Assembly: GCA_965198325.1 (NCBI GenBank) | Contig: CBDAPE010000011.1 | Span: 47,680-111,679, forward strand | DNA: 64,000 bases | DNA from: Alphaproteobacteria bacterium | GTDB lineage: Bacteria > Pseudomonadota > Alphaproteobacteria > UBA828 > JAPUJA01 | Direction of reading: 5' to 3' | In this document: positions 24,609 to 63,123 of the stretch, in pieces | Position numbering within the stretch: position 1 is the first letter of the stretch | How the letters are laid out: the number at the start of each line of letters is the position of its first letter | Made by a program: the position numbers and the translations under genes | The notes under the pieces: model-generated | What the model was told of the DNA's origin: nothing | Database searches by the model: none | Seen by the model: only the letters and a program-made list of their open reading frames with translations

Positions 24609-25250
24609 GGAGCGGAGCGCCGCCAGTTCGTCGCGCGCAATCCGGACTACCGCCGGCAGTTCCCACGGACGCATAAGCAATCCGACAAGCCCGGCGACGG
24701 GCCGGATTTGGCCATCCGGTCCAAATGCCCGCATCGCAGCCCAAGGGATGCGATGACGGGCGGGATCGGAGATCACCCGGGCGACCAGGAACGGCACGTG
24801 ACAATCCTTCGCGACATGGGCAACCGCATGGCTCTCCATGTCGACGGCCTGCGCGCCACTCCGGGTTCCGAGCCGGGCCTTGGCTTGCACCCCTGCGACG
24901 GCTTCGTCGACACCAAGCAGGGGGCCGCCCGCGACCCCGCTCCCGACCCGTCCACGCAAGGCTTCCCGCCAGACGGGATCGGTTGCATACCGGGCACCGC
25001 CCGAATCCAGGACAGCATCCGGAAGAATGACCGCGCCCGCGCCAAGCGCGGGATCGAGACCGCCCGCCGTGCCGAAACTCGCCAGTCCGAGGGCGCCCTC
25101 CTCAATCAGCTCGCGGGCGGCCCGCTCGGCCGCAAGGGGCCCGAAGGCTGATGCCACCATAAGGGCCGGCGTGTTATCGAATGTGGATCGGGTGGGATCG
25201 AGGCAGGCCGCCTCGCTGGTCAGGCCGGTCACGACTCCGAGACGGGTCAC
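24540..25250 (-). CDS. hpnG: Hopanoid-associated phosphorylase/nucleosidase HpnG
   Basis: GTG start overlapping the shc stop; SFGTAGGLDP, VDMES, RVISD; 3' end overlaps hpnH by 69 bp. Confidence 0.85.
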   Translation of the reverse strand: MTRLGVVTGLTSEAACLDPTRSTFDNTPALMVASAFGPLAAERAARELIEEGALGLASFGTAGGLDPALGAGAVILPDAVLDSGGARYATDPVWREALRGRVGSGVAGGPLLGVDEAVAGVQAKARLGTRSGAQAVDMESHAVAHVAKDCHVPFLVARVISDPARHRIPWAAMRAFGPDGQIRPVAGLVGLLMRPWELPAVVRIARDELAALRSLRRVAAAAPLLGFGLRESLLDV

Positions 25251-27244: not shown

Positions 27245-27278
27245 GAGCTGTACGAAAAGCCCCGGCCTGCGTCGGCCG

Positions 27279-29204: not shown

Positions 29205-29380
29205 GTCCCCCGCTTCTGTTCTTGTCGGTCGGCACGGTGTCGAGAAGCCGTGAAACCGCAGCCGTGCGAATCAACAAACGTAGCAAATTATTGAAAATCC
29301 ACAAAATCCAGAATTCGTATTGTATATCAAGCGGTTGTATTTATCCAGTCCAAGCGGGTCCCTATGATGTGACGGATTTA

Positions 29381-30415
29381 TTAATCGGGCCCGTGCCGGT
29401 AGGTATAGCGGAGACCGAAGCTATCGAGGTCCTCATTGGCTGAGGCGAGGCGTCCGTTCGATATGTGGTCGAGTACGAGGGAAATAGCGTGCCGCCCGTC
29501 CAGCCGATAACCCAATTCGGCCCCTTCCCGGAACAGAAATCGAACCCCCAGTTCCTTTTCATCGGTTCCGCCGGACGCCCGCAGTTTGCCGTCGTGAAAG
29601 GCTAGGCCAAAGTCGGCGCCGAAGAACAGTCTGTAACCGAGGTCGAATTGCCAGCTGAAGCCACCGAACCATTGGCTTGTGTCGCCTGCCGTGCTGATAT
29701 GAAACCCGGTGTGCGGCTTCGGATTGGCGATCAGATCCCAGAATTCACCGTGCAAGGTTTGAAACCGGATTCCGAAATCGATCGCGCCGACGCTTTCCTC
29801 CTTTGAGCGCCCGAAGACGCCCGCGTCGTGTGCCATGCCGCCCAACCAGAGCTCCGTAATGCCGGCCTCGTGGAGAGACGTCGCCAAATCAGTCGCGTAT
29901 ATGGGCGTCGCCGGCTCGGGCGCCTCGGCAACGGCCATGGGCGCAGGTACGGTGTAGACGGGTGCCGGAGCCGGTTGCAGATAACTCGGCGTCACATAGA
30001 CTGGCGCGGGTGCGGGCGTGACCGGTGCCGGTTGGGCGACCATCGTGGTTTGTGCGCCACCACCAAATGCTGCCGAGAAGGCGGGGAACGCTTCACTCGC
30101 GGCAGCCACGATCGTCGGGCCATAAGCCGGGGTTAGGCCGATCGCTTCCTGCACGATGGGCGCCGCGTAAGCCGGATGCTGGGAAATCGCCACGACCACG
30201 GCGTGAGCCATGACCGATTCGCCACTTCGAAAGCCCGAATCGCCAATCCGGGGCTCATTTGCCATACTCCGGGCGATCGCCGCCGCCATCTGAAGCTCCT
30301 GGCTCAAGGCCGGTGGAAGGATGGCCTGCGAAAGCGCACCCGGCACAGCGAACAGCAGGACCGCCAGCGCCAGCGTCGGCGCCGCCAGCAGGCGGAGGCG
30401 TGAGGTCCGTTTCAT
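29381..30415 (-). CDS. PagL-like lipid A deacylase (acyloxyacyl hydrolase) with N-terminal repeat domain
   Basis: Signal peptide; C-terminal beta-barrel pattern PHTG...LGVRFLFREGAELGY...HISNG...DSFGLRY. Confidence 0.75.
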   Translation of the reverse strand: MKRTSRLRLLAAPTLALAVLLFAVPGALSQAILPPALSQELQMAAAIARSMANEPRIGDSGFRSGESVMAHAVVVAISQHPAYAAPIVQEAIGLTPAYGPTIVAAASEAFPAFSAAFGGGAQTTMVAQPAPVTPAPAPVYVTPSYLQPAPAPVYTVPAPMAVAEAPEPATPIYATDLATSLHEAGITELWLGGMAHDAGVFGRSKEESVGAIDFGIRFQTLHGEFWDLIANPKPHTGFHISTAGDTSQWFGGFSWQFDLGYRLFFGADFGLAFHDGKLRASGGTDEKELGVRFLFREGAELGYRLDGRHAISLVLDHISNGRLASANEDLDSFGLRYTYRHGPD

Positions 30416-30495
30416 GGCCGCTCAGTGTTCGGTCCGGCAGATTAAATTACAACCGTAAACTCCGCCCTGTCGTGGAGGGCCCCGGGGGGCGGGAC

Positions 30496-31503
30496 TCAAT
30501 TCTCGTCAGCCGGGAAACCGAGATAGCCGTGTGAACGGAACCAGTCGATCGCGTCCTCGAGCGCATCGTGCACGGGGCGGGTCTCGTAGCCCAGATCACG
30601 CCGTGCCTTATCGATGGAGAAATACATCTTCTTGCGCGCGAGCTTGACACCATCGACAGTCACCCTCGGCGTTCCGCCACTCAGCCGGGCCCAGGTCTCG
30701 GCGAGAACGGCGATTGGCAAGACCGCAGCGTTGGGCAGGCGAATCCGGGGTGGCGCCCGGCCGACGATCGCGGCGATGTCGATGAGCAACGCCCGCAGGC
30801 TGAGATTTTCGCCGCCGAGGATATATCGTTCGCCGACGACGCCGCGCTCGAAGGCCAGCAAATGTCCCGCCGCGCAGTCGTCGACATGAACGAAATTCAA
30901 TCCAGTGTCCACATAGGCGGGCATCCGGCCGCTCGCGGCCTCGACGACCAGCAGGCCGGTCGGCGTCGGGCGAATATCCCGAGGGCCGATCGGGGTGGAC
31001 GGATTGACAATCACGACGGGTGCGCCCTCGGCCGCAATCAGTCCGCGAACCGCCTCCTCGGCGAGGTATTTCGATCGCTTGTAGTGACCGATCATGGCGT
31101 CCACCGTGACCGGGGTTGCCTCGTCCGCGGGGCTGCCGTCAAGGTTGAGCCCAAGCGCCGCGACGCTGCTCGTATAGACGATTCGTGACACGCCGGCTTC
31201 GCAGGCCGCCCGGACGAGGGCGCGGCTCCCTTCGACATTGACGGCGTAGATTCGCTCAGGATCGGGAACCCACAGCCGATAGTCCGCGGCCACGTGAAAC
31301 AGCGCGTCGCAGCCCTTGATTGCGCGGGCAAGCGACGCGGAATCCGTCAAATCGCCCTCCACGGTCTCGACCGCAAGATCGGCGATGTTGCTTCGATCGG
31401 AGCCGGAGCGCACCAAGGTCCGGACGACGTGATCCGCCTCGAGCAGCCGGCGAGTCACCGCAGCGCCGACGAAACCGGTCGCCCCAGTGACGAGCGTCGT
31501 CAT
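30496..31503 (-). CDS. hpnA: Hopanoid-associated sugar epimerase HpnA
   Basis: TGATGFVG, HVAADYRLWVPD, YKRSK, PTPTG, GRMPAYVDTG. Confidence 0.93.
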   Translation of the reverse strand: MTTLVTGATGFVGAAVTRRLLEADHVVRTLVRSGSDRSNIADLAVETVEGDLTDSASLARAIKGCDALFHVAADYRLWVPDPERIYAVNVEGSRALVRAACEAGVSRIVYTSSVAALGLNLDGSPADEATPVTVDAMIGHYKRSKYLAEEAVRGLIAAEGAPVVIVNPSTPIGPRDIRPTPTGLLVVEAASGRMPAYVDTGLNFVHVDDCAAGHLLAFERGVVGERYILGGENLSLRALLIDIAAIVGRAPPRIRLPNAAVLPIAVLAETWARLSGGTPRVTVDGVKLARKKMYFSIDKARRDLGYETRPVHDALEDAIDWFRSHGYLGFPADEN

Positions 31504-32153
31504 GCGCCGCGCGTCTTGCGGAACCGTTCGCGCAAGCTATCGCGATGAGCCCAGATGATGATTCCGGCGACGAGCGGCGCTCCCGCTCCCGCAATCAGGA
31601 GCGGCAGTAATCCGCCGAACCAGACCACCGGACCGAACAGATAGATGACGTCTTCGATTTCGAAGCCGCCCCAGCGGGGTTGAATGCGTTCCTTGGCGAC
31701 CAGCGACGCGCGATGACCGAAGATCCAGTAAAGCCCGGCGACGCCCAACGCGCCGATGACGCCGAGGATGACGGTGATATCGCCCAAAATACCGCCACGC
31801 TGACCGACTCCGATCGCCGCGAACAGAAGGATCTGGATGGTCGCGTCGCACGTCAGATCATAGCGGTGGCCGAATCGGCTTGTCTTTCCCTGCAGCCGGG
31901 CCAGTTCGCCATCCGCGTGATCGAGGAAGGTGGAGAAGATGTACAACGCGGCGCCCCAGTTCCACCAGGCGACGCTGTCCATGGCCAGAAACGCGATGCC
32001 CGCAAGACCCGTCAGAAGCCGGAGCGTCGTGAGCTGGTTGGGCGTCACGGGCGTGCCGACGAGGGGACGCACGATGATGCGTGCGAGCCGCTGATCCCAG
32101 GGCTCTCTCTCCGCGACCGCGGCCTGATCGTGTCCGGTTGTCTGTTCGCTCAC
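31500..32153 (-). CDS. CDP-alcohol phosphatidyltransferase family protein
   Basis: TPNQLT; DHADGELAR...GHRYDLTCD signature; stop overlaps the hpnA start. Confidence 0.9.
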   Translation of the reverse strand: MSEQTTGHDQAAVAEREPWDQRLARIIVRPLVGTPVTPNQLTTLRLLTGLAGIAFLAMDSVAWWNWGAALYIFSTFLDHADGELARLQGKTSRFGHRYDLTCDATIQILLFAAIGVGQRGGILGDITVILGVIGALGVAGLYWIFGHRASLVAKERIQPRWGGFEIEDVIYLFGPVVWFGGLLPLLIAGAGAPLVAGIIIWAHRDSLRERFRKTRGA

Positions 32154-32265
32154 GGCGGCCTCGTCCTTTCCCGGGGCCGTATGCTACTCATTGCAGCATG
32201 ATTGGCAATTGCGAAGCGCGAAATCTGGACCTCTTTCTGACGAAGCCATCGACCGGCGCATCGTT

Positions 32266-33021
32266 ATGAGGGCGCTGCTTCTCGCGGCCGGCGTGGGTAA
32301 CCGCCTGCAGGGCGCAGGCCATGTGGGCCCAAAAATCCTGCTCGCCTTCGATGGCCGCAGCCTTCTTGCGCGCCACGTAAGCCTGCTGCGAGCCGCAGGA
32401 ATCGACGATATCGTCGTCGCGACCGGCTTCGGGGCGGACGCCATTGAGGCGGAACTTCGGCGACTTCCCCAGCCCGGGCAAATCCGAATGGTCCATAATT
32501 CCGCGTTCCGGCAGGGCAGCGCCGTGACCTATTGCTCACTTGGTGCTGCGGCGACCGCGGGCGGCGACATTCTGCTGATGGACGGCGACGTACTTTACGA
32601 CCGACGTATTCTCGATCGCCTTCTTGCGACCCGGCAGCCCGAGTGTTTTCTGCTCGACCGGGATTTTGAACCCGGCGAAGAGCCCATGAAGCTCGCCGTC
32701 AAGGACGATCAGCTCCGTGAGTTCCGACGGCGCCTGAGCGTGGACTTCGACTATTGCGGCGAATCAGTCGGCTTTTTCCGCCTGACCCAGACGATGGCCG
32801 CGCGCCTCTTCAAGGTGTGCCAGGAATTCATCGATGCCGGGCGAACCGACGAAGATTACGAGACCGCACTCGGCGACCAGATCGAGGCGGAGCCCGGGCG
32901 TTTCGGCTTCGAGGACGTCACCGGCCTGCCCTGGACGGAGATCGACTTTCCGGATGACATCGTTCGCGCCCGGGACGAAATTCTACCGCGCCTGATCGAC
33001 GATGATCGCCGACCCGACTAG
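32266..33021 (+). CDS. Phosphocholine cytidylyltransferase-like nucleotidyltransferase
   Basis: LLAAGVGNRL, PKILL, MDGDVLYD, GESVGF, WTEIDFPDD. Confidence 0.88.
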   Translation: MRALLLAAGVGNRLQGAGHVGPKILLAFDGRSLLARHVSLLRAAGIDDIVVATGFGADAIEAELRRLPQPGQIRMVHNSAFRQGSAVTYCSLGAAATAGGDILLMDGDVLYDRRILDRLLATRQPECFLLDRDFEPGEEPMKLAVKDDQLREFRRRLSVDFDYCGESVGFFRLTQTMAARLFKVCQEFIDAGRTDEDYETALGDQIEAEPGRFGFEDVTGLPWTEIDFPDDIVRARDEILPRLIDDDRRPD

Positions 33022-33890
33022 AGCGTGCCCACGAAGGCGCGGAGCAGCTTCCAGATTTTCGCCGCCTTTCCAAGCCGGACGGCCGCGCCCGACAGGCGCC
33101 AATCGCTTTCGGCCATGCGCACGAGATAGGCCTCGTAGATCGCCCGCATGAGCAGTGCCGGGCGCATATTGCGAATTTCGGAAGCCGGCAGGCTCGCGGA
33201 CGCCTGATCGAAGCGCTGACGCGCGAGCCCGCCGATCTCGGCGCAAACGACACGAAGCTTGGGATGAGCCATCAGCTGGGCGACCGGCACCTCGGCCATG
33301 CCGTGCCGCTCGAGAACTTCGATCGGTAGATAAATCCGCCCCCGCGCCGCATCCTCTTCGATGTCGCGCAGGATATTGGTGAGCTGAAAGGCGTGGCCGA
33401 GATGAACTGCGAACTCGGGGATGTGTGAATCCTGAAATTCGAAGATCTCGACGGAGATCAGCCCCACGCAACAGGCGACGCAGTAGCAATAGCGCTCGAG
33501 TGTCGCCATGTCGGGGCGCATCATCGCCCCCGAACGATCCATGTCGAAGCCGTTGAGGATTTCCTCGAAATGGATCTTGGGCAGACCGAACCGCTCGACG
33601 GGTCCCGCCAGGGCGCGTGTGACCGGATGGCGCGGGCGGTCCTCGTAGAGCCGATCGAGCTCGTCGCGCCAGCCATTGAGCTGAACCAGCGATTCCGCGG
33701 GATCCTCGATCTCGTCGACGACGTCGTCGGTTTCTCGGCAGAATGCGTAGAGCGCCAGCATCGCCTCGCGCTTATCACGGGGCAGGATCATCATTGGCTT
33801 GGCGAAGGAGCTGCCCGACGCCCGCACGACGTCTGCGACGTAACTCTTGGGGTCGTCGATTTCGGGAACCGCCAGTGCCGTGCTCACCAT
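33018..33890 (-). CDS. hpnD: Presqualene diphosphate synthase HpnD
   Basis: SGSSF, YAFCRETDDVVD, YCYCVA, QLTNILRDIEEDAARGRIYLP. Confidence 0.9.
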   Translation of the reverse strand: MVSTALAVPEIDDPKSYVADVVRASGSSFAKPMMILPRDKREAMLALYAFCRETDDVVDEIEDPAESLVQLNGWRDELDRLYEDRPRHPVTRALAGPVERFGLPKIHFEEILNGFDMDRSGAMMRPDMATLERYCYCVACCVGLISVEIFEFQDSHIPEFAVHLGHAFQLTNILRDIEEDAARGRIYLPIEVLERHGMAEVPVAQLMAHPKLRVVCAEIGGLARQRFDQASASLPASEIRNMRPALLMRAIYEAYLVRMAESDWRLSGAAVRLGKAAKIWKLLRAFVGTL

Positions 33891-34720
33891 GCGCTCACGA
33901 CACCCTTCACCCCGCACCACATCCAGCCGGGCCTCGAGACCTTCACCGGGCCCGCCACGGGATCGTTGCGGCGCAGCAGTCGGGCGAGCCGGAGAGCCAG
34001 CATCAGGATCGTCTGGCTTTCAAGTCGCAGGCCCCGCCGGCGCACCGACGGCGGCATCGTCCGGGCCCGGATCAACAGCGCGTCGACCCCGTCCAGGCAT
34101 CGGTCGATGGCATGGCGCACGGCGGGTGTCGCAGCGGATTTTGCCAGATCGCCGACCGATCCCCCTGCCTCGATGAGCCAGGGCTCTGGCAGATAGACCC
34201 GGTCGAGCTTGAGATAGTCGTCCTGGCAGTCCTGCAGGTGGTTGAGCATCTGAAGCGCCATGCAAAGCGCGTCCGAACCCTCGACGTCCGCGTCGGTTTC
34301 GCCGTGGATATCGATCATGACCCGCCCGACGGAAGCGGCCGAGCGGACGCAATAATTCATCAGATCGTCCCAGTCCGCATAACGCCGCTGGGTCACGTCC
34401 TGAATGAAGGCGGAGAGGAGCGAACGCCCGTGACCCGGCGTCTTGCCCGTCGTGATCAGGCTGCGGTGATAGAGCACGGCCCAGTCGGGCAAAGCCCCCT
34501 CGTCGACGCCCAGCGCACGCTGAGCCCGTTCCAGGGGTTCGAGCTTGTCTTCGATCGAAAGCGACGGTGAATCGGCGATATCGTCGGACGCCCGTGCGAA
34601 GTTGTAAAACGCATGGACATGCGGACGGCAATCAGGTGGAATCAGCCACGAGCCGACTGGAAAATTTTCCTTATTGTCGGCAATCAAGTCGTGAATTTCG
34701 CCAGCTTGTGCAGCCTGCAC
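33884..34720 (-). CDS. hpnC: Hydroxysqualene synthase HpnC
   Basis: ENFPVGS, FARASDDIAD, SAFIQD, NHLQDC...DRVYLP. Confidence 0.92.
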   Translation of the reverse strand: MQAAQAGEIHDLIADNKENFPVGSWLIPPDCRPHVHAFYNFARASDDIADSPSLSIEDKLEPLERAQRALGVDEGALPDWAVLYHRSLITTGKTPGHGRSLLSAFIQDVTQRRYADWDDLMNYCVRSAASVGRVMIDIHGETDADVEGSDALCMALQMLNHLQDCQDDYLKLDRVYLPEPWLIEAGGSVGDLAKSAATPAVRHAIDRCLDGVDALLIRARTMPPSVRRRGLRLESQTILMLALRLARLLRRNDPVAGPVKVSRPGWMWCGVKGVVSAW

Positions 34721-53075: not shown

Positions 53076-53789
53076 TCAGCCGGATTTCATCTGACTGGTC
53101 AGGCGAAGAACGTCATCGCCGCGACCCTTGCCATAATCGGCCAGCGCAACACGGCCTCCTGCTGCGTAGACCGCAACCGCACCAAGCAGTTCGCGAAGTT
53201 GCCGCGCGCTCGATGCATCGAACGGACAATAGGCGCCTCCACTCAGCTTCGCGATATGGCGAAACGCTCTGGCCGATATGGGTTCTCCGCCCTCGTGGAA
53301 TACGAATACGGGCAAACCCAGCACGCCGAGTTGGCCTGCCAGATGGCTCAGCTCGTCGACGTCCTCTTCGATGTAGTCGCCGACAAAGACCAACGCATCG
53401 ATCCGTGCCTTCTTCGCCTCCCGCAAGGCGTGCCGTAGCAATTTGCCGATCTGGGTCTGGCCGCCAAGGCAGAACACCGACGTCATGTGCCGGACGAGCG
53501 CTTTCGAATTGGTCAACCATTTTGTGGCCTTGAATTCACCAAATCCCCGGTAGAACACAAGCTGGACCTCGAGTCCGCCGAGCGCCGCAGTAGCCTCGAA
53601 CATTTCGCCCTGGATCTGGCAAGCGAGATCCCAAGTGGGCTCCCGACTCGCCGTGGCATCGACTGCAAACATCAGGCGGCCCCGCTTGCGAGCGCCGGGC
53701 CGGTAGGGAGTAACGGCCGCCTTGCGCACAAAGGCGTCGACGGCGGCCTGCGTCTCCTTACTCGGAAGCTTACTGTCGTCTGCGGCCAT
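53076..53789 (-). CDS. VWA domain protein
   Basis: FAVDATASR MIDAS-like motif, GGQTQI, FVGD. Confidence 0.88.
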   Translation of the reverse strand: MAADDSKLPSKETQAAVDAFVRKAAVTPYRPGARKRGRLMFAVDATASREPTWDLACQIQGEMFEATAALGGLEVQLVFYRGFGEFKATKWLTNSKALVRHMTSVFCLGGQTQIGKLLRHALREAKKARIDALVFVGDYIEEDVDELSHLAGQLGVLGLPVFVFHEGGEPISARAFRHIAKLSGGAYCPFDASSARQLRELLGAVAVYAAGGRVALADYGKGRGDDVLRLTSQMKSG

Positions 53790-53929
53790 CTAATTTCACG
53801 TCGTTCGTCATGCAACGATATTGCTCAGGTTGGCTTACGTCCACGTCGGTCGAGCGCCACAAGTTGCGGCATACCACCAAGCAACGTAAAGACAGGAGCG
53901 TAACTTATTGGAATAATGAGCGAAACAGT

Positions 53930-54942
53930 TTATTCTACATGAATGAGAGCGGATGGGTAAAACGCGTGGAAGGCGAAGGCGAAATCGACCCGATAGACCA
54001 CGTCCTCCAAACCGTCCTTGGTTTTTCGCTGAACGACGACATTCCCCACATCGGCACCCTCGGCGATGACGGCGCTGTCGAGCGCCGATGCCTGACCGGG
54101 TTCCCACGTGATCACGAGATTGCCGACTTCGATGCGCTCAGCCTTCCGGACCAGCGCCAGACTCCAGGCTTCCTCCCCCACCACGACCACACGCGACAGA
54201 GCCGGCACCTGTTCCGGCAAGGGCCCATCGAAAAACGGATAAGGTTCCGTGCGGCTGTCGTAATAGGTGTAGGGATTGGCTCCATATCGAGCATATGACC
54301 CGTGACCGGGCACGAGGACCAGGCCGTCCCGGGCCCGTTCACGGAAGTTCGCAAATGATTCGAGGCGGGCGGGCAGCATGGTGAACCACCGACCCGTCAT
54401 TTCTCCAACGATTGCCTCGCCGACGAATTGCTGCCACCAGCTCTCGGTCTGGCGGTCGTACATGATGAGGTCGGAATTCCGCAAAAATCGGAAACCCCGA
54501 AATCGAGCACCCGCCCGTCGACACGTCGGTCGAAGACGACCGTCGTGTTGCACAAGGGGCAAAAAGTCACGGCGATTGGCACGCCACCGACGACGTCGTT
54601 GACGATCTCGTGCCGCGTCAGAATGCGTAACGGGTAGGCCCGAATGTCTCCGTCGATGGAGAGGCCGGCCACCGGCTCGCGGTCTGCGATATCCTCGATT
54701 TCTCGAACCGGGGCAAAGCTCGGTGAATCGATCGCCGGTATGCCATCCTTGCGAACCCCGCCTCATTTCACCTCGTCCCAATCGATGCCGTAGATATCGA
54801 ACGCGGTGTTGGGCCAAGACCGCTCGAGATCGGGAAACGTCTCCAAGGGCGACGCCGAAGCGAACGTCGCGGCATGCACGGCGAGAAGAACCAGCGTCAG
54901 CGCGCGTCCGAAACGTCTCAAGTTATCTTTGACGATGACCAT
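53930..54942 (-). pseudogene. DUF3179 family secreted protein; TGA at 54763-54765 and frameshift near 54489
   Basis: GGVRKDGIPAID, RAYP, HEIVND, TFCPLCN, then LRNSDLIMYDRQTESWWQQ and FAFAFHAFYP. Confidence 0.88.
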
Positions 54943-55155
54943 ATTCGCGCTAAATTGTCGTCTGAGAGAATTATCTGCAGACTGAGTCAAGGCGGCAAGT
55001 CACGACCACGTGACTAGGCTCCGTCAGAGCGGGCTTATGATTTGCGGCGTTTACTTGCAGGCAACAATTTTAATTGCTATTTAGTTTGGAGAGGTTAGGG
55101 AAAATGATCGACCCGGCGGCAGGCCGGCGCCCCTGAGACCAGGAGATCGCTTGCG

Positions 55156-56067
55156 ATGTGCGGACTAGCGGGAATCATGTTCAAGACTGGTGGAAGCAGC
55201 AACGACACCGGCAAGGCCCTGATCGACATGCTCGACGGATGTCAGCATCGGGGGCCCGATTCGACAGGCTTTGCGCTCTACACGACGGACACGGAGGAGG
55301 ACCGGCTTCACCTCCGGTTTTACGTCGGTCCCGCGGGAACCGAACAGAGCAAAAAGATCACCGAAATCAAGGACATCCTCGCGAAGCACAGTGCGTCGAT
55401 CCTCAAGGACGAGGTCATCGTCGAGAATTACCGCTGCGACGTAGAATTCAGCGGCGACCTGCAGAAGATGAGCTATGACCTGGAGCACATCGCCTCGATC
55501 ATCTCAATCGGGAGCAGCCTCGAAATCTTCAAGGATGTCGGCACTGCTCACGAGGTCGACGATCGCTACCACATCCAAGGATTCAAGGGCACTCACGGGC
55601 TGGGCCATGTTCGGATGGCGACCGAATCGGCGGTCGCGCCCGAGGCCGCTCACCCCTTCTGGGCGACCGGATTTTCGGACGTGGCGATCGTCCATAACGG
55701 CCAGATCACGAATTACTATAAGTTGCGCCGCCGCCTCGAGCGTCGGGGCTTCGAATTTCATACCGAGAATGACAGCGAGCTGATAGCGATCTATCTGGCC
55801 GACAAGCTGCAGCAGGGCATTTCGCTCCGCGACGCTCTGGGCCAGTCGATCGAGGATCTCGACGGCACCTTTTCCTATCTGGCGTCGACCAAAGACGAGA
55901 TCGGCTACGCGAAAGACCGGCTCGCGGTGAAGCCGATGATCATGTACGAGGACGACGACCTCATCGCGATCGCCTCCGAGGAGGTTTCGCTCAACCGCCT
56001 GTTTCCCGGAAAGCCGCTCGATACCAAGGAGCCACCGCCAGGGACCTATAAAACATGGTCACGCTAG
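55156..56067 (+). CDS. Class II glutamine amidotransferase (GlxB/MgsA-like)
   Basis: N-terminal MCG, HRGPDSTG, GHVRMATES, HNGQITN, NDSE. Confidence 0.9.
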   Translation: MCGLAGIMFKTGGSSNDTGKALIDMLDGCQHRGPDSTGFALYTTDTEEDRLHLRFYVGPAGTEQSKKITEIKDILAKHSASILKDEVIVENYRCDVEFSGDLQKMSYDLEHIASIISIGSSLEIFKDVGTAHEVDDRYHIQGFKGTHGLGHVRMATESAVAPEAAHPFWATGFSDVAIVHNGQITNYYKLRRRLERRGFEFHTENDSELIAIYLADKLQQGISLRDALGQSIEDLDGTFSYLASTKDEIGYAKDRLAVKPMIMYEDDDLIAIASEEVSLNRLFPGKPLDTKEPPPGTYKTWSR

Positions 56068-58013
56068 ATCTGGCCGAATTACCCGTTCGTCAGGCCAACG
56101 AACAGCTTCGCGAATACGGCGAAAAGGGTGAGGATGTCGAGATCCTCAATCCAGATTCGAAGCATCACATCGGCGTCGGGCTGACCTCGCCGATCAATGT
56201 TCATGTCCGGGGCTCGGCCGGCTATTTTTGCGCGGGCCTGTCGGACGGCGCCAATTTCACGATTGACAACAACGTCGGCTGGGGCGCGGGCGACAACATC
56301 TATCAGGGTTCCGTGGTCGTCGGCGGCAACGCCGGCGCGATTGCTGGTGTTGCGATTCGTGGCGGCGACGTCGTGATCAAGGGAAATATGGGCTCGCGCT
56401 CAGGCCAGGTGATGAAGGCCGGCACCCTGTGCTGCGCCGGCAACGCCAATTTCATGGCCGGCTACATGATGTATGGCGGCAAGATCATCATTCTGGGCAA
56501 TTCCGGCGAGCGCGTGGGCGAAGACATGAGCGCCGGTGATATCTATGTGGGCGGCGACCTGCAGGATCTTGGATCGGACGCGATCCAAACCGATATCTCT
56601 CAAGAAGAAATCGATGAAATATTAGAATTTTTAGATCGTTACGAGCTGAAGTTCACAGGAACTCTAAAGAAAATCATTAACGCTGGGAAGAAGCTGCGCT
56701 ACCCCACCCTGGAAAAACAGATGCGCAGCATTCCCTACTTTCATTTTTCCAGCGACTGCGATTACTGGAACGGCAAGGTCCAGGAGGACATCTATATCAA
56801 GTCCCAGATTGGCCGTTACCGCATTCGCGGCTATGGCGGGGCACGCACCCTGCCCCATTTCGGCGATATTGCGTTCCGCGCCGATTTATCGAAAATTGGC
56901 GCCGAGCCGGACCCGGTCTCGAAGATCAGCCTGAAGACCGAAATCGGCGGTCGTCATGGCGGCCAACCCTTGAAGCTGACCATGCCGGTGATGATCGCGC
57001 CGATCAGCTACGGTGCGATCTCGGCCTCGACCAAGCACGCGATAGCCATTGCCTCCTCGCTCTCGGGCATTGCCGAGAACACGGGCGAAGGCGGCATGAG
57101 CGAGGCGCAACGGAATTCGGCGAAGCAACTCATATTTCAGTGTCTGGGCGGGCGTCTGGGCTGGAACATCCACGACATGAAGCGAGCCAACGGCGTCGAA
57201 ATCTACATTTCCCAGGGTGCGAAGCCGGGATTTGGCGGCCAGCTCATGGCAAAGAAGGTGACCAAGGAATTGGCGCGGGTGCGCGGCATCCCCCACGGCA
57301 TCGATTTGCGCTCGCCGTCACGCCACCCCGATATCCTCGGGCCCGACGATCTCGTCATTAAGGTCGAGGAATTTCGCGAGGCGACGGGCTACAAGGTGCC
57401 GGTGAGCGTCAAGATGGGTGCGGGCCGTGTGCCCGACGACATCAAGATTGCGGTCAAGGATACCTTCGACTTCGTCGAGCTGGACGGAATGCAGGGCGCC
57501 ACCGGCGCGGGAAGCTCCGAGGTTTCCGAATTCGTCGGCATCCCCACGCTGGCGGCGATCGTCGAGGCGGTCGACGCGCTGAACGACATCAACGCCCGGG
57601 ACAAGATCCAGATCGTCCTCATGGGTGGCATGCATGATGGCGTCGATATGATGAAGGGCCTGGCGCTTGGAGCCGACGCCTGCGCGATCGGTACGTCCGC
57701 GATTATCGCGGGCGGTTGTATCGCCTGCATGCAGTGTCACATCGGTGATTGCCCGGTCGGCATTGCGACCCAGGATCCCGAACACGAAAGCCGCTACAAC
57801 TACGAGGTCGAGGCCCATAACATCCACCGCTTCCTCGAGAGCGTACGCTGGCAGATCGCGGCGATCACCCACGCGTTGGGACACGACGACGTAAGCCAGC
57901 TGTCGCGCGACGACCTGGTCGCGCTGACACCGGAGGCGGCGGCGATCACCGGGCTGCCCTACGAGCCCGAATATCGTCAGCAGGACGACGATCTGCGCCG
58001 AAAGGTCGGCTGA
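56055..58013 (+). CDS. Fused GXGXG beta-helix + FMN glutamate-synthase domain (GlxC-GlxD/MgsB-MgsC-like)
   Basis: Gly-rich GXGXG repeats in the first ~220 aa; then YRIRG, TGEGG, QGAKPG, DGMQGATG, CIACMQCHIGDC. Confidence 0.88.
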   Translation: MVTLDLAELPVRQANEQLREYGEKGEDVEILNPDSKHHIGVGLTSPINVHVRGSAGYFCAGLSDGANFTIDNNVGWGAGDNIYQGSVVVGGNAGAIAGVAIRGGDVVIKGNMGSRSGQVMKAGTLCCAGNANFMAGYMMYGGKIIILGNSGERVGEDMSAGDIYVGGDLQDLGSDAIQTDISQEEIDEILEFLDRYELKFTGTLKKIINAGKKLRYPTLEKQMRSIPYFHFSSDCDYWNGKVQEDIYIKSQIGRYRIRGYGGARTLPHFGDIAFRADLSKIGAEPDPVSKISLKTEIGGRHGGQPLKLTMPVMIAPISYGAISASTKHAIAIASSLSGIAENTGEGGMSEAQRNSAKQLIFQCLGGRLGWNIHDMKRANGVEIYISQGAKPGFGGQLMAKKVTKELARVRGIPHGIDLRSPSRHPDILGPDDLVIKVEEFREATGYKVPVSVKMGAGRVPDDIKIAVKDTFDFVELDGMQGATGAGSSEVSEFVGIPTLAAIVEAVDALNDINARDKIQIVLMGGMHDGVDMMKGLALGADACAIGTSAIIAGGCIACMQCHIGDCPVGIATQDPEHESRYNYEVEAHNIHRFLESVRWQIAAITHALGHDDVSQLSRDDLVALTPEAAAITGLPYEPEYRQQDDDLRRKVG

Positions 58014-58014
58014 C

Positions 58015-60543
58015 GTGGCCGCGGCGGAAGACAAGAGCCTGATGACGGACTTGCCGAATCCGTTCGAACTCGCGGACGATACGGGCGACAAGCATTACGT
58101 CCCCGCACCGTGTCAGCTGGGTTGCCCGATTGGCACCGACGCGCCCTCCTATATCGCCCTGATCTGGGAAGAGAAGCTGGAAGAAGCCTACGAAGCGATT
58201 ACGGCGACCAACCCGTTCAGCTCCTCGTGCGCCCGCATCTGCGCGGCGCCCTGCGAAGATGTCTGTCGGCGCGCCGACAGCGACGGACCGATCGGTATTC
58301 GCAATCTCAAGCGCTATGTCATGGAACGCCTGGGCGACAAGATCAAGCTGCCGTCCGTTCAGGTGTCGCGCGAGGAGACCATCGGCATCATCGGCGGCGG
58401 GCCTGCGGGTCTGACTGCGGCCCAGGATTTTGCCCTGGCCGGGTTCGGAGTCCACGTCTACGAGCTGTCCGAGGTGCTTGGTGGGATGATCGCCTGGGGA
58501 ATTCCTTTCAACCGGCTGCCGCCGCCGGTCCTCAAGGAAGACCTCGACCGGATTCTCGAGCGCTGCCCGGGCATCGAGGTCCACCTGAATTGCACCTTTG
58601 GCAAGGACGTCACTTTCGATGAGCTGAAGGACCGCCACCAGGCCGTGCTGCTGTCGATCGGCGCAACCTGGGGCAAGGATCTACCGATCCCCGGCGTGGA
58701 ACACCCGAGCGTGTGGGACGGGGTCGACTTTCTGCACCGAACCAACGCGGGCGAAACACTCAAGGTCGCCGGCAAGGTCGTCGTCATCGGTGGCGGCGAC
58801 GTCGCCATGGACGTCGCACGAACCGCGCTTCGGCTGGGTGCCAGCGAGGTTCATCTCTCGGTGCTCGAAAACCGCAACAACATGCGGGCCCACGAGCACG
58901 AGCTCCACGCCACGCTCGCCGAGGACGTCGATCTGCACAACGACCGTCTGCCGACGCGGATCGAGGCCACCGAGTCCGGGCTGGCCCTTCACGTCGTCAA
59001 GACGACGGGCGGCGGCCTGGACGACGAAGGGCGCCTGCAGTTCGAGATCGTCGAGGGTTCTGATTACGTGGTCCCCTGCGACATGGTCATGACCGCCGTG
59101 GGCCAGCAGGCGTTGAGCGACGAGCTGGACAAGCGTGGGATGATGGAGCGCGGCTGCGTGATCACCGACGCGGACACCATGCGCACGGCCGATCCAATGG
59201 TCTATTCCGCGGGCGACAGCGCCTTCGGCGGCTCGACCATCGTCGAAGCGATGCGCCAGGGCCACAAGGCGGCCTACTACATCAAAGCGGCGCTCGACGG
59301 CATCGACGATCCGATCCCCTACAAGACGCCGCACCGGACCCGCCGCGTCAAGGTGGCCCAGGATCTGGAATGGTCGAACATCCCGCAAATGAAGCAGGAA
59401 TTCATCGGCCTGGGCAGCGACCCCGAGGCATTCGAGGAGAGCGAGATCGGCTATGACCGGGATACGGCCATTGCCGAGGCAGCCCGGTGCTTTCGCTGCG
59501 ATGCCGAGACCGGCTCTTCGGATTACTCGGTGCAGAACCGCGAGGACATCTTCTCGATGGCGCGGACCAATCCGATGGACCACGCGAAGCACGCGGCGAT
59601 GTTGAGAAAGCGTCTGCCGAACCGCGACGACCCCTATCCCGAGGAGCGCAGTGCAACGCTCGAAGATCTCACCTTCCTGCCGGCCAACCTCTCGCGCCTG
59701 GTGATCGATCCCTATCGCGAGGCGTGCAAGGTCTCGACCGCGATCGGCGCGATGGAGCTGCCCCAGCCTTTCTTCGTCACCGGCTTCGATGAGGCACCCA
59801 GCGAGGTGAAGGCGGCAGTGGCGTCGGGTCTTGCACAAAGCGATTGCGGGTATCTGGGCGCTGCCCCAATCGCGGACAATATCCGCTGGCTCCAGCTGCT
59901 TGAACCCGGCACCGAGGCCAGCAAGGACGCTGTCGCGCTGGTCTACCGAACCGGCCAGAGTTTCGCGCCCGTCGAGGTGAAACGGCTGTACGAAGATCAG
60001 CTTCTGGGGCTCGCGGTGTCGTCGTCCGCAGCCCTCGAAGAGGCCATTCCCTTCGCGCTCGAAGCCGGCTTCGACCTGATGGTGCTGGATGGAAGCGGTG
60101 GAATCGGCGGCCGCTGGCCCGAGCTCGCGGGCGCACCCGACCTCACCATGATGCGCGACGCCATCCGGATCCTGCGCCGGCTCAACCGCGAGGAAGAGAT
60201 CGACCTGGTGTTCTTCGGCGGCATGCGCTCGGGAACCGATGCTGCAAAACTGATCGCCATGGGGACGGTCGCGGTGGTGTTCGGCGCTTCGGTCGGATTT
60301 GCCGCGGGCGGCGCCTTCGTCCAGGGCAACGACATGATGTTCGAGGCGGACTATACCGCCGAGGACCGTACGCTTGCGGTCGCAAATATTCTCAAGGCGG
60401 TTGCGGTCGAAGCTTCGATGATGGCCCGATGCACCGGCAAGACGGCACTCCACAATCTGGAGCCCGAGGACATGCGTTCGGTCAGCATCGCGACGGCCGA
60501 GGCGACAGACCTTCTCCTCGTGGGTAAGCAGTCGGCCGCCTGA
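58015..60543 (+). CDS. GltD-like Fe-S flavoprotein fused to a degenerate FMN glutamate-synthase domain
   Basis: APCQLGCP, CARICAAPCEDVCRR, GGGPAG, GGGDVAMD, AGD, EAARCFRC; C-terminal LEDLTFLPANLSR...FGGMRSGTD. Confidence 0.85.
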   Translation: MAAAEDKSLMTDLPNPFELADDTGDKHYVPAPCQLGCPIGTDAPSYIALIWEEKLEEAYEAITATNPFSSSCARICAAPCEDVCRRADSDGPIGIRNLKRYVMERLGDKIKLPSVQVSREETIGIIGGGPAGLTAAQDFALAGFGVHVYELSEVLGGMIAWGIPFNRLPPPVLKEDLDRILERCPGIEVHLNCTFGKDVTFDELKDRHQAVLLSIGATWGKDLPIPGVEHPSVWDGVDFLHRTNAGETLKVAGKVVVIGGGDVAMDVARTALRLGASEVHLSVLENRNNMRAHEHELHATLAEDVDLHNDRLPTRIEATESGLALHVVKTTGGGLDDEGRLQFEIVEGSDYVVPCDMVMTAVGQQALSDELDKRGMMERGCVITDADTMRTADPMVYSAGDSAFGGSTIVEAMRQGHKAAYYIKAALDGIDDPIPYKTPHRTRRVKVAQDLEWSNIPQMKQEFIGLGSDPEAFEESEIGYDRDTAIAEAARCFRCDAETGSSDYSVQNREDIFSMARTNPMDHAKHAAMLRKRLPNRDDPYPEERSATLEDLTFLPANLSRLVIDPYREACKVSTAIGAMELPQPFFVTGFDEAPSEVKAAVASGLAQSDCGYLGAAPIADNIRWLQLLEPGTEASKDAVALVYRTGQSFAPVEVKRLYEDQLLGLAVSSSAALEEAIPFALEAGFDLMVLDGSGGIGGRWPELAGAPDLTMMRDAIRILRRLNREEEIDLVFFGGMRSGTDAAKLIAMGTVAVVFGASVGFAAGGAFVQGNDMMFEADYTAEDRTLAVANILKAVAVEASMMARCTGKTALHNLEPEDMRSVSIATAEATDLLLVGKQSAA

Positions 60544-60586
60544 CGACTGAGAACGCCGGATCGCCCCTCCAGAACGAAGACCTGTC

Positions 60587-61978
60587 ATGCGCAGCTTCTG
60601 GCTCCAACAGGCCCTCGCCGAAGATCAAGCCGACATAACACCGCTGGATGGCGATATCCGCGCCGATATTTGCATCGTGGGCGGCGGTTTCACGGGGCTG
60701 TGGACGGCGCTTCGCCTCAAAGAGCACGAGCCTTCCCTCGATATCGTGATCATCGAGGCCGACATCTGCGGTGGCGGGGCGAGCGGCCGGAACGGCGGCT
60801 TCTGCATGACCTGGATGTCGAAGGCCGCGACGCTGCTCAAGATCTGCGGCGCCCAGGACGGCGTCCGCCTGCTTCGGGAATCCCAAGACGGCGTCGCGGC
60901 AATCGGGCAGTTCTGTGTCGATCACGGGATCGACTCCCATTTCCGTCACGACGGCTGGCTGTGGACCGCGGGGAATGCGGCTCAGGCCGGCGCCTGGTCC
61001 GAGACCCTGGAGCAGCTCGACAAGCTGGGCATCGATGCCTTCGACGAACTCGCGACCGACGAGGTTGCCCGGCGCACCGGAAGCGAGGCGCATTTCGCCG
61101 GCGTCTTCGAGCGCGGCATCGCGACGGTCCAGCCCGCTTTGCTCGCCCGGGGTCTGCGCCGGATCGTCGCCGAACGGGGCGTCACAATCTACGAGCAGAC
61201 GAAAATGACCCGCCTCGCCCGGCAAACGATGCCGCGAGTTCGAACCAACCGGGGCACGGTCACCGCGACCCGCGTGGTTCTGGCGCTCAACGCCTGGGCG
61301 CACGAGTTGTCCGAATTCCGGCGTACGGTCATCCCGATCGGTCCCAATGCGTTCGTGACCGAGCCTGCGCCCGACCGCCTAGCCGAGGTGGGTCTCACCG
61401 ACGGGGTCGCGATCTCCGACTCCCACATGCTGGTGAACTACTACCGCACCACACACGACGGCCGGCTCGCCTGGGGCAAGGGAGGCGGCCCGATCGCCTT
61501 CGCCGGCCGGGTCGGCACGCGTTTCGACGGCCCCGCGCCCCGGCCCGATCTGGCCTGGGCCGATTTCGTCCGCTACTACCCCTCGCTGTCCGATTTGAAG
61601 ATCGCGACCAGCTGGACCGGGCCCGCAACACGCACGGAAACCGGCCTGCCCTCGTTCGGCCGTCTGCCTCGCGCGCCCGCAATCGTGTTCGGTCACGGCT
61701 ATACGGGAAACGGCGTCGGGCCCAGCTATCTCGGCGGGCGCATTCTCGCGTCGCTGGCGCTCGATCTCGACGACGAATGGACGAATATGCCGCTCGTCCA
61801 GATGCCACACGCTTTCCTGCCCCCCGAACCGATCCGATATTTTGGCGGCCAGGTCGTCCGCGCCGCCGCCCACGCTAAGGACCGCGCCGAGGATGCAGGC
61901 CGCAAACCCGGCCCCCTGGTCAATAAACTCGCAGCGCTGGCGCCCGCCGGTCTCGCGCCGCTACACGACGACGACTAA
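60587..61978 (+). CDS. FAD-dependent oxidoreductase (DAO family, PuuB-like)
   Basis: SFW, GGGFTGLW, GASGRNGG, VQPALL, GYTGNGV, PPEPIR. Confidence 0.88.
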   Translation: MRSFWLQQALAEDQADITPLDGDIRADICIVGGGFTGLWTALRLKEHEPSLDIVIIEADICGGGASGRNGGFCMTWMSKAATLLKICGAQDGVRLLRESQDGVAAIGQFCVDHGIDSHFRHDGWLWTAGNAAQAGAWSETLEQLDKLGIDAFDELATDEVARRTGSEAHFAGVFERGIATVQPALLARGLRRIVAERGVTIYEQTKMTRLARQTMPRVRTNRGTVTATRVVLALNAWAHELSEFRRTVIPIGPNAFVTEPAPDRLAEVGLTDGVAISDSHMLVNYYRTTHDGRLAWGKGGGPIAFAGRVGTRFDGPAPRPDLAWADFVRYYPSLSDLKIATSWTGPATRTETGLPSFGRLPRAPAIVFGHGYTGNGVGPSYLGGRILASLALDLDDEWTNMPLVQMPHAFLPPEPIRYFGGQVVRAAAHAKDRAEDAGRKPGPLVNKLAALAPAGLAPLHDDD

Positions 61979-61986
61979 CCCGTCGT

Positions 61987-63123
61987 TCAGGCCGTCAGCG
62001 CCTCGATCACGAGCTTATGGAAATGATGGACCCCGTGCTCGCTGATATTGTGGTGGCCGAAATCCGTCATGTAATAGCCTTGGCGATAGCCCAGTGACTG
62101 CTGACCTTTTTGCACGCTCTCGAGGATCGCGACGTCCTCGGGCTGAAGGGTCTCGTCGAGATAGCGGATGGTCTCCCACTGATTTTCGGTCGGCGTCGGG
62201 TCGAGAAAGAAGAAATCAAAGGTCTGACGTGTGCGCCCCGGCGCGACGGGGGCCTGGTTCCAGACCATCAGATTGCCATCGCCAGGATAACGCAGGATGA
62301 GAATATTGGGCCAGACCCACCACATGCCGTGATCCATGACCGCGGCGCCCTCGATATCGTAGGCGCTGTTCGCACCCGGCCGGGCCAGGGCATGCTGGGT
62401 CTGGTACAGGCCGTGGATTTCGATCCGCCAGGTGTCGTAATCGATCAGCTCGAGGAATCCCCGATGGGCGTCGCCTGCGACCGGCACATGATAGGACTCG
62501 AGGAAATTGTCCTGCACGTTCTTCCAGTTCGATCCGATGTCAAAGCTCAGCCGGTGGGCGAAGGCAAGCTGGTCGATGTCGGGGGCAAGCCGGCGCAGGT
62601 CGGCCTCCAGCCCGTCCGCTTGACTCGCGAACGACGGCGCCGAGCTATCGGGGTTGATCAGGATCATGTTGCAAAAGATTTCAACGCCCACGGGCGTCAG
62701 GCAAACCGCCGCCCGATCGAAGCCGGCCACGTTGGTAGCGTTGGGCGCCCCCCGAAGCCGGCCGTCGAGTTCGTAGGTCCAGGCGTGGTAGGGGCAGACA
62801 ATCGCGCTCTCGATGTGGCCCGAGCCCTCGAGGAGCTCGTGCCCCCGGTGCATGCAGGCATTGAAGAACCCCCGGACCGCGCCGTCACGGCCGCGCAGGA
62901 TCACGATGTTCTGGCCGCCGATCTCGCAGGTCAAATAATCGCCTGGCGCAGCAAGCTGGGAGACATGCCCGGCATACTGCCAGCGGCGCTGGAAAATCGC
63001 GCGGCGTTCCTGCTCGAAGATTGCGGGATCGTGATAGAAATGGGCGGGCAAGGCCCGGGCGCGTTCGGGGTCGTCGTCGAACGCTCCCACATCGAGAAAC
63101 GGCGCTGTCACTTTGTCGATCAT
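61987..63123 (-). CDS. Rieske oxygenase alpha subunit (CntA/choline monooxygenase-like)
   Basis: CMHRG...CPYHAW Rieske motif; NWK..DNFLESYH....H; ED...ESVQKG; SEHGVHHFH. Confidence 0.9.
   Translation of the reverse strand: MIDKVTAPFLDVGAFDDDPERARALPAHFYHDPAIFEQERRAIFQRRWQYAGHVSQLAAPGDYLTCEIGGQNIVILRGRDGAVRGFFNACMHRGHELLEGSGHIESAIVCPYHAWTYELDGRLRGAPNATNVAGFDRAAVCLTPVGVEIFCNMILINPDSSAPSFASQADGLEADLRRLAPDIDQLAFAHRLSFDIGSNWKNVQDNFLESYHVPVAGDAHRGFLELIDYDTWRIEIHGLYQTQHALARPGANSAYDIEGAAVMDHGMWWVWPNILILRYPGDGNLMVWNQAPVAPGRTRQTFDFFFLDPTPTENQWETIRYLDETLQPEDVAILESVQKGQQSLGYRQGYYMTDFGHHNISEHGVHHFHKLVIEALTA

Follow-up and report, generated by a model that had tools for sequence, protein, structure and literature searches.

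A three-gene relative of glutamate synthase and N-methylglutamate synthase that joins a GltD-type reductase module to a stripped paralogue of its own FMN barrel

The N-methylglutamate pathway is a major route of methylamine use in soil and sea. In Methylobacterium extorquens DM4 its genes are mgsABC-gmaS and mgdABCD (PMC6237917), and that paper describes the redox cofactor of N-methylglutamate synthase as unidentified, with NADH, NADPH and ferredoxin as candidates, and proposes for the enzyme a reductive amide-to-2-oxoglutarate reaction (PMC6237917). The synthase, called MgsABC or GlxBCD (EC 2.1.1.21), is made of separate subunits, a GlxB-type amidotransferase, a GXGXG protein and a flavin mononucleotide (FMN) barrel, and has no dedicated reductase. 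Its better-known relative, the glutamate synthase (GOGAT) GltBD (EC 1.4.1.13; 2vdc, 6s6s, 7mfm), strings together in GltB an amidotransferase (GATase_2), a non-catalytic central domain (PF04898), an FMN barrel with the QGAKPG motif and a GXGXG beta-helix, and adds GltD, a reductase with flavin adenine dinucleotide (FAD) and iron-sulfur (Fe-S) centres. Here we analyse a 64,000-nucleotide stretch of an alphaproteobacterial genome, hereafter the window, which carries an operon whose first three genes (the trio) belong to a real, conserved, widespread and unstudied family related to both enzymes. In the open-access literature that we searched, we found no description of an Mgs/Glx system that is fused to GltD or that bears the additional barrel described below. 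We propose, with a probability of about 0.6, that the trio forms one redox-coupled complex of the glutamate-synthase superfamily, belonging to the GlxBCD/MgsABC branch and operating like an NAD(P)H-dependent GOGAT, unlike the redox-neutral classical N-methylglutamate synthase.

The operon comprises four tightly packed genes on the plus strand: genes 1 and 2 overlap by 13 nucleotides, gene 3 starts 1 nucleotide past the stop of gene 2 and a gap of 43 nucleotides separates genes 3 and 4. A preliminary description of the stretch had listed four co-directional genes and their domains, and the open reading frames and Pfam matches agree with it. Gene 1 (55156..56067) encodes a 303-amino-acid protein matching GATase_6 (71 bits) and GATase_7 (65 bits), in which a script located the catalytic motifs MCG at residue 1, HNGQI at residue 180 and ENDSE at residue 204 (DSE at 206). 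The protein has the catalytic N-terminal cysteine of GlxB-type class II subunits and is, judging by these motifs, a stand-alone class II (N-terminal nucleophile, Ntn) glutamine-type amidotransferase similar to GlxB/MgsA. Gene 2 (56055..58013) encodes a 652-amino-acid fusion of a GXGXG domain (residues 33–175) with a catalytic FMN barrel (Glu_synthase, residues 305–610, 314 bits), which matches large chains of GltS in the PDB (120–131 bits). The same script found GEGG at residue 344, QGAKPG at residue 387, GGCIACMQCHIGDCP at residue 553 and a four-cysteine motif C-x2-C-x2-C-x4-C at residues 555–566, so that the intact QGAKPG and Fe-S cysteine motifs reported earlier were both recovered. Like GltBD, the protein carries an FMN barrel with 2-oxoglutarate/FMN motifs and an Fe-S cysteine motif, with four cysteines as opposed to three in the genome's own GltB. 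Gene 3 (58015-60543) encodes an 842-amino-acid protein in two parts, an N-terminal GltD/NfnB-like NAD(P)H-FAD reductase module (58015..59511) and a C-terminal domain of 343 residues (59512..60543) that we call Cbarrel.

The trio shares with MgsABC/GlxBCD the same three blocks in the same order, and its FMN domain resembles GlxD more closely than GltB. It differs from them by the fusion of the GXGXG and FMN parts, by the addition of Cbarrel and by the presence, in 55 of the 106 loci analysed below, of a GltD-type NAD(P)H/FAD/Fe-S module. With GltBD it has in common the amidotransferase, the QGAKPG barrel, the GXGXG beta-helix, the GltD-type reductase and a non-catalytic alpha/beta domain accompanying the FMN barrel. 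Unlike GltBD, the trio is split over three genes and places GXGXG ahead of FMN, its amidotransferase is of the GATase_6/7 kind (GlmS/PurF-like) with no GATase_2 match, and the PF04898 central domain is missing.

In the C-terminal domain of gene 3 Pfam reports a weak Glu_synthase match (residues 673–765, 23.2 bits for a cut-off of 20.4). We aligned the last 343 residues of the protein with 47 homologues (alignment A1) and compared these 48 domains by hhalign with 40 FMN domains (alignment A2). The two profiles matched over 268 columns with a probability of 99.7% (E 1.2e-25); Cbarrel has nothing equivalent to the stretch running from GEGG through QGAKPG to RSPSRHPD or to the Fe-S cysteine loop, while it keeps the GG.RSGTD strand (GGMRSGTD at residue 735 of gene 3, within FGGMRSGTD). 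Alignment A1 contains 42 invariant columns, including DLxFLxAxLxRLVIDPYRE, FGG.RSGTD and ARCTGKTxxHNLEPEDM, and Cbarrel is therefore far too conserved for a decaying remnant. On the strength of the profile comparison it is a genuine but catalytically stripped paralogue of the adjacent FMN barrel, which bears out the earlier reading of this region as an FMN-barrel paralogue of about 310 residues without GEGG, QGAKPG and the Fe-S cysteines. Homology of Cbarrel to the GltB central domain was considered and rejected, as no Pfam match to PF04898 was found and hhalign against the central domain of the genome's own GltB gave a probability of 0.8%. With the FMN domain of that same GltB the probability was 10%, on the GG.R.G.D strand only. 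A search of PDB sequences with the Cbarrel profile returned weak matches alone, the best one being inosine monophosphate dehydrogenase (IMPDH, 1vrd, E 6e-5); all of them fall on the phosphate-binding strand (IMPDH and 2-hydroxyacid oxidases) and indicate no more than an FMN/IMPDH-type barrel. A look-up in the ESM Atlas gave only unnamed Glu_synthase-like clusters of about 330–390 amino acids, some of them archaeal.

We modelled the complex of the whole 652-residue protein (alignment A3, 38 rows) with Cbarrel (A1). The three runs reached ipSAE interface scores of 0.91, 0.88 and 0.87 (median 0.88), whereas none of the three controls exceeded 0.00; the runs showed agreement in at least 83% of the contacts and a partner predicted local distance difference test (pLDDT) value of at least 88. 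Of 157 solved complexes, 116 attained the mark applied to such models, as did 2 of 215 mismatched pairs, rates that are rough here given the custom alignments. The modelled interface engages 115 residues of the FMN protein, found in the GXGXG-FMN linker (33 residues), on the catalytic face (around QGAKPG at 385–393, in RSPSRH at 419–423 and at 479–497) and in segment 547–559, which adjoins the Fe-S cysteines. On the side of Cbarrel 89 residues take part, from an N-terminal arm (1–42), the invariant 53–69 block and the GG.RSGTD loop. The interface takes in 19 of the 42 invariant Cbarrel residues (odds ratio 2.7, one-sided Fisher p 0.003); the invariant block 309–321 lies outside it and may face another partner. 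The model supports binding of Cbarrel to the active-barrel protein, in line with the interaction between the 652- and 842-residue proteins that had been proposed for checking.

Gene fusions argue independently for a single complex made of the trio's parts. Cbarrel is joined to the FMN protein in 35 loci, and in one further locus (L134) everything is fused; a 1486-amino-acid protein (P0127) likewise unites GXGXG, FMN, Fer4_20, Pyr_redox_2 and Cbarrel according to Pfam. The preliminary description had proposed that the degenerate barrel docks the reductase onto the active barrel. This idea fits the modelled contact at 547–559 and the position of the N-terminal arm right after the RCxRC motif of the reductase: since the start of Cbarrel follows RCxRC directly, the model places the Fe-S domain of the reductase beside the Fe-S loop of the active protein. 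It is too narrow as a full account of the domain, as Cbarrel is kept without GltD in 35 of 106 loci; because these GltD-less forms are nested among GltD-fused ones, Cbarrel would be a core part of the enzyme, beyond a reductase adaptor.

The N-terminal part of gene 3 matches Fer4_20 and Pyr_redox_2 (residues 31–416) and possesses two Rossmann motifs, GGGPAG at residue 127 and GGGDVA at residue 259. Its best NCBIfam model is PRK12771 (377 bits for a cut-off of 516), and the GltD models TIGR01317 and TIGR01318 score 187–208 bits for cut-offs of 448–483. Matches to the PDB entries 9bov, 4ylf_B and 2vdc_G nevertheless make clear that the fold family is GltD-type, within what appears to be a PRK12771/NfnB-like subfamily distinct from GltD of GltBD. 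A second feature sets this reductase apart. The Fer4_20 profile is represented by two separate parts in the window (58102-58330 and 59395-59550), and its positions 4–35, together with a conserved EAARCxRC motif (residues 487–495), come about 460 residues after the N-terminal part, just ahead of the barrel. Because the N-terminal match begins at profile position 30, and positions 4–35 are found at residues ~472–503 (E 3.9e-4, under the cut-off), the Fer4_20 domain seems to be circularly displaced, with its first Fe-S cysteine pair behind the FAD/NAD module. The junctions of related proteins agree with the phylogeny of the FMN domains described below: GltD-fused proteins share EAARC[FYL]RCD[AT]ETG directly ahead of the barrel, and in GltD-less proteins a variable linker joins the end of the FMN protein straight to ETG.

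The cysteines of the FMN protein give a second redox signature. The C-x2-C-x2-C-x4-C motif is found in all 31 family FMN domains of alignment A2, those of GltD-less proteins included, which points to regular electron traffic. The spacing in the genome's own GltB is C-x5-C-x4-C. Four of five classical GlxD proteins from true N-methylglutamate clusters (L066, L069, L072, L073) lack these cysteines and have a 16-residue insert, in contrast to the trio, which always keeps them.

The distribution of Cbarrel indicates an extended family. A word-indexed search retrieved 1030 proteins at E≤1e-3, most of about 840 amino acids and named at best 'FAD-dependent oxidoreductase' or 'glutamate synthase', and a profile search of 1.84 billion representatives gave 920 proteins at E≤1e-3, of which 109 reached E≤1e-30. 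Scans of genome and metagenome contigs yielded 316 and 269 relatives respectively, of which 80 from each were kept; removal of five duplicates left 106 distinct Cbarrel loci, whose genes were called as stop-to-stop frames scored by phmmer. The GltD+Cbarrel architecture of gene 3 occurs in 54 of them, or 55 with the GltD module of L134; GXGXG-FMN and Cbarrel share a frame without GltD in 35, all domains are in one frame in L134 alone, and Cbarrel is cut or stands alone in the remaining 16, stand-alone forms of about 344–437 amino acids being found in the profile search too. In a quick IQ-TREE phylogeny of 53 FMN domains, rooted on the genome's own GltB (branch length 5.4), all 37 family rows form one clade (Shimodaira-Hasegawa-like approximate likelihood ratio test, SH-aLRT, 100; stem 1.14), separate from a 12-row clade (SH-aLRT 99) that contains nine classical GlxD/MgsC rows, two further paralogues of the window's genome (on contigs C18 and C19) and L074b. 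The nine classical rows, from clusters of the N-methylglutamate type, group on their own within it (SH-aLRT 100). GltD-less forms are nested inside GltD-fused ones (2 changes), which implies no fewer than two losses of GltD, and the 15 GltD-less rows of the tree are all from Thermodesulfobacteriota. Cultured carriers include Desulfatitalea alkaliphila, with the GltD-fused form, and Desulfosarcina variabilis, with a GltD-less one. A more distant relative of 720 amino acids (P0265) consists of GXGXG, a 4Fe-4S dicluster domain and an FMN domain that weakly matches PF04898 (28 bits), which hints that the classical GltB central domain may itself be an old FMN-barrel derivative.

Gene neighbourhoods in other lineages suggest a link of the trio to methylamine chemistry. 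Of the distinct loci, 58 extend 6 kb or more upstream and 2.5 kb or more downstream; among these the amidotransferase gene is present in 58 and the FMN protein gene in 57, so that genes 1–3 form a conserved unit. A glutamine synthetase (GS)-like ligase, scored at no less than 300 bits to two probes, adjoins it in 48, a regulator with helix-turn-helix and cupin domains in 43, a YbaK-like protein in 24, SoxA-like (Mgd-like) genes in 19, Amt in 19, SoxB-like genes in 18, PII in 16 and MttB in 3. All five adjacent ligases that were scanned exceed the TIGR03105 cut-off, and the two ligases that were tested match 7cql (650 bits) and 9qur, 'glutamate--methylamine ligase' (391 bits), best among solved proteins, with glutamine synthetases at about 230–250 bits. 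Classical three-gene GlxBCD loci (L066–L080) have the same ligase and Sox-like genes at their flanks, and the trio therefore occupies the usual place of MgsABC, beside GmaS-type ligases and SoxBDAG/Mgd-like genes. The earlier statement that neither gmaS nor mgd is near holds for the window, where Pfam finds none, a difference from MgsABC that does not extend to the family. In Desulfosarcina-type loci canonical gltB-gltD, glnK and amt lie directly upstream (gltB-gltD in L032 and L046). The YbaK/ProX-like 'tRNA_edit' protein of about 155 amino acids follows the GmaS-type ligase (for example at L033:12018-12485, and in 23 other loci) and has no obvious role in an amine pathway. Genes for MttB-family methyltransferases lie by the operon in L011 (10150-12299), L019, L029, L059, L070, L124, L130 and L134, adjoined by a gene for a B12-binding corrinoid protein where this was mapped (L011, L019, L059 and L070), which might indicate a connection with the anaerobic demethylation of methylated amines.

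Within the window's order Cbarrel is close to universal: it was detected in 44 of 48 other genomes, the four misses being 62–79% complete, and in none of 12 genomes from other families of the class outside the order, counts that are descriptive only as kin are not independent. A ligase above the TIGR03105 cut-off occurs in 43 of the 48 and in 1 of the 12, elsewhere in the genome than the trio; it stands alone in the seven loci retrieved from a second family and beside SoxB and SoxA in G004, a genome of the same family as the window and the only one of those whose trio loci were retrieved that also shares the synteny of DUF3179 gene, trio, oxidase and Rieske gene. Two trio copies of equal score are present in G019 (L194 and L195), and G038 (L202) has a second, truncated copy, a 413-amino-acid frame with a reductase remnant and Cbarrel. 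The window's genome also encodes a canonical gltD-gltB pair, and the GltB central domain was found in 45 of the 48 other genomes; the idea that the trio is the sole GOGAT was rejected on this ground. Two GlxBCD-like clusters accompany it in the window's genome, one at C18:58916-66506 (GS-like, amidotransferase, GXGXG, FMN, Amt and formate-tetrahydrofolate ligase) and one at C19:436428-439356 with two class I amidotransferases and an ATP-binding cassette (ABC) transporter, and the genome has at least 15 GS-like genes in all. The trio as the sole Mgs candidate for the GmaS of the order was rejected too, because each of five genomes checked has two further GlxD-like genes.

The fourth gene (60587..61978, 463 amino acids) encodes a DAO-family FAD oxidoreductase (Pfam DAO, 192 bits). 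Its label 'PuuB-like' was fair, with 30% identity to Escherichia coli PuuB (b1301) over 405 residues; the 'putative aminophosphonate oxidoreductase' model TIGR03329 is the closer match (524 bits, full-length, under the cut-off of 633), and both are, like gene 4, DAO-family FAD enzymes of that length. No puu or phosphonate (phn) genes were found near gene 4 in the window. The preliminary description had counted the oxidase with the system, a view that the conservation data do not sustain: none of the 58 well-flanked loci has a gene-4-like oxidase, L001 is the only one of the 106 to carry it and G004 has it too, so we rejected it as a member of the conserved system and regard it as an add-on of the window's own family. 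There it may oxidise the N-alkylated or gamma-glutamylated product of the trio. A convergent cluster of betaine/choline-type catabolic and uptake genes lies downstream (window 61987-63123 on the minus strand, and L088, G000:C11 downstream), with a GbcA-like Rieske oxygenase, a nucleoside hydrolase, two choline-kinase-like genes, an ABC permease, three OpuAC binding proteins and PutA. Upstream, an AT-rich non-coding region of 338 bp (54818..55155, plus strand) separates the operon from a divergent DUF3179 gene. It includes a likely ribosome-binding site, AGGAG, 8–9 nucleotides ahead of the ATG of gene 1, and one weak sigma-70-like match (54929-54956). The promoter scan of this region gave 3 matches for 1.7 expected, which is not significant, and promoter and terminator scans together gave nothing above the shuffled expectation; a search of Rfam over 53700-55400 for a riboswitch or other RNA returned no family at E≤1. 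A perfect palindrome, GTCACG-ACC-ACGTGAC (54998-55013), is a possible operator candidate. Elsewhere in the window, and unrelated to the operon, lie hopanoid-type genes, squalene-hopene cyclase (25247-27244) and two SQS_PSY genes (33018-34720), with DXS (27279-29204) beside them in the stretch 25247-34720.

From the domains, the fusions and the complex model, all of which agree with the earlier reading of the three proteins as one redox-coupled GlxBCD/MgsABC-like system with a GltD-type module, we propose the following course for the reaction. The Ntn amidotransferase would hydrolyse a gamma-glutamyl amide, which in the window's genome could be either a gamma-glutamyl-alkylamide such as gamma-glutamylmethylamide (GMA) or glutamine; at the level of the family, the GmaS-type ligases and Mgd-like genes that adjoin the trio elsewhere make gamma-glutamylmethylamide the favoured substrate and N-methylglutamate the favoured product. 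The amine or ammonia set free would be channelled inside the complex to the FMN barrel and condense with 2-oxoglutarate, and FMNH2 would reduce the imine, giving an N-alkylglutamate (N-methylglutamate) or glutamate. Electrons would travel from NAD(P)H through the GltD-like FAD and the Fe-S centres to the four-cysteine cluster of the FMN protein; in the GltD-less anaerobes another donor, probably ferredoxin, would take over. Cbarrel would be a permanent structural subunit seated against the catalytic face of the active barrel, with an N-terminal arm that sets the Fe-S domain of the reductase beside the Fe-S loop of the active protein. In the model it would thereby work like the central domain of GltB, an inert domain that always accompanies the FMN barrel, without being homologous to it: the two have no detectable sequence relation, Cbarrel derives from a GlxD-type FMN domain, and its coding sequence is part of the reductase gene or follows the FMN domain, whereas the central domain lies between amidotransferase and FMN domain. 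We further consider, as a tentative possibility, that the trio represents a distinct class of NAD(P)H-driven (ferredoxin in the GltD-less anaerobes) gamma-glutamyl-alkylamide:2-oxoglutarate aminotransferase that hands methylamine-type nitrogen to 2-oxoglutarate and releases no ammonia, in which Cbarrel independently re-invents the GltB central domain, and that this is a core enzyme in the amine-nitrogen assimilation of the order.

Several observations weigh against the proposal of a redox-coupled complex of the Mgs type. The reductase module stays under the cut-off of every named NCBIfam model, and the enzyme survived at least two losses of GltD, so NAD(P)H input would not be obligatory for the core reaction. 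The cysteine signature is not exclusive to the family, since three GlxD proteins of classical type have both the cysteines and the insert (L078, L074b and the genome's own C19 copy). The central-domain-like position of Cbarrel is read from the contact list of one complex model. The trio is solitary in the window and in 17 loci from 15 other genomes of its order, with no GmaS-type ligase, Sox/Mgd or Amt gene within about 9 kb, and the pathway context is therefore borrowed from other lineages. Even the ligase elsewhere in the genome is a poorer match here: the best TIGR03105 matches of the window's genome score 545–551 bits, compared with top matches of about 611–673 bits in 42 of the 43 other genomes of the order that have such a match (G003, 79% complete, has a match of 551 bits only). 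Finally, two further GlxD-like genes were found in all five relatives checked, in keeping with the two other GlxBCD-like clusters of the window's genome, and GmaS could pair with those instead.

These points leave room for other explanations. A second, differently built NAD(P)H-dependent GOGAT (glutamine + 2-oxoglutarate + NAD(P)H giving 2 glutamate), paired with a type III glutamine synthetase and perhaps set apart from the canonical enzyme by nucleotide preference or regulation, would account for the parts list, with amidotransferase, QGAKPG barrel, GXGXG, GltD-type reductase and a pseudo-barrel in the place of the central domain; for the nitrogen-assimilation setting of the Desulfobacterales operons, with glnK and amt upstream and gltB-gltD before those; for the near-universal, solitary, housekeeping-like occurrence of the trio in the window's order; and for the name of TIGR03105 itself, glutamate--ammonia ligase. 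We nevertheless consider it unlikely, as the canonical gltB/gltD pair would make a second GOGAT redundant, the FMN domain belongs with the GlxD/MgsC branch and is well removed from GltB, the two tested ligases are closest to solved glutamate--methylamine ligases and not to glutamine synthetases, and 19 of 58 loci have Mgd-like demethylating genes after the operon. A different possibility is that the trio carries out the redox-neutral classical reaction (glutamate + amine giving N-alkylglutamate + NH3, with internal cycling of FMN), GltD merely priming or repairing the flavin. Classical N-methylglutamate synthase is not known to need an external reductant, the loss of GltD on at least two occasions left the remainder in place, and the genomic niche is that of MgsABC in 48 of 58 loci. 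We judge this reading clearly improbable, as the four Fe-S cysteines persist even without GltD, in contrast to their loss in most N-methylglutamate-cluster GlxD proteins, and a full FAD/NAD(P)H/Fe-S module would be a heavy investment for mere repair; moreover, PMC6237917 treats the reductant of the synthase as an open question.

The complex might also run oxidatively, as an NAD(P)+-reducing N-alkylglutamate or glutamate dehydrogenase whose amidotransferase is vestigial or regulatory, the DAO oxidase acting on a related amine. GltD-type modules are indeed reversible in other enzymes, such as Nfn and dihydropyrimidine dehydrogenase among the PDB matches, and the flanks of the operon in the window have a catabolic character (the DAO oxidase, the GbcA-like Rieske oxygenase, betaine-type transporters and PutA). 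An amidotransferase with Cys1, the HNG oxyanion motif and DSE, present in 58 of 58 loci, would make no sense in a pure dehydrogenase, and separate demethylating Mgd-like genes exist where they are needed, so that we hold this explanation to be highly doubtful. The reading we favour is a redox-coupled, NAD(P)H-driven complex of the GlxBCD/MgsABC branch.

If the proposal of a gamma-glutamyl-alkylamide:2-oxoglutarate reaction is correct, it would answer the question of what reduces N-methylglutamate synthase, and Cbarrel would cap the live barrel, help to form the amine tunnel and anchor the reductase. A widespread relative of the synthase that carries its own NAD(P)H reductase offers a directly testable answer on the source of electrons, and a tractable enzyme to purify. 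Cbarrel would be a clean natural case of a duplicated catalytic domain turned structural, in parallel to the GltB central domain, and the series of architectures, reductase-fused, FMN-fused, all-in-one and stand-alone, provides a ready-made experiment on the assembly of the complex. Members of the family occur in nearly all genomes of one alphaproteobacterial order and are frequent in the sulfate-reducing Desulfobacterales and Syntrophobacteraceae, so that their function is relevant to amine and nitrogen cycling under oxic as well as anoxic conditions.

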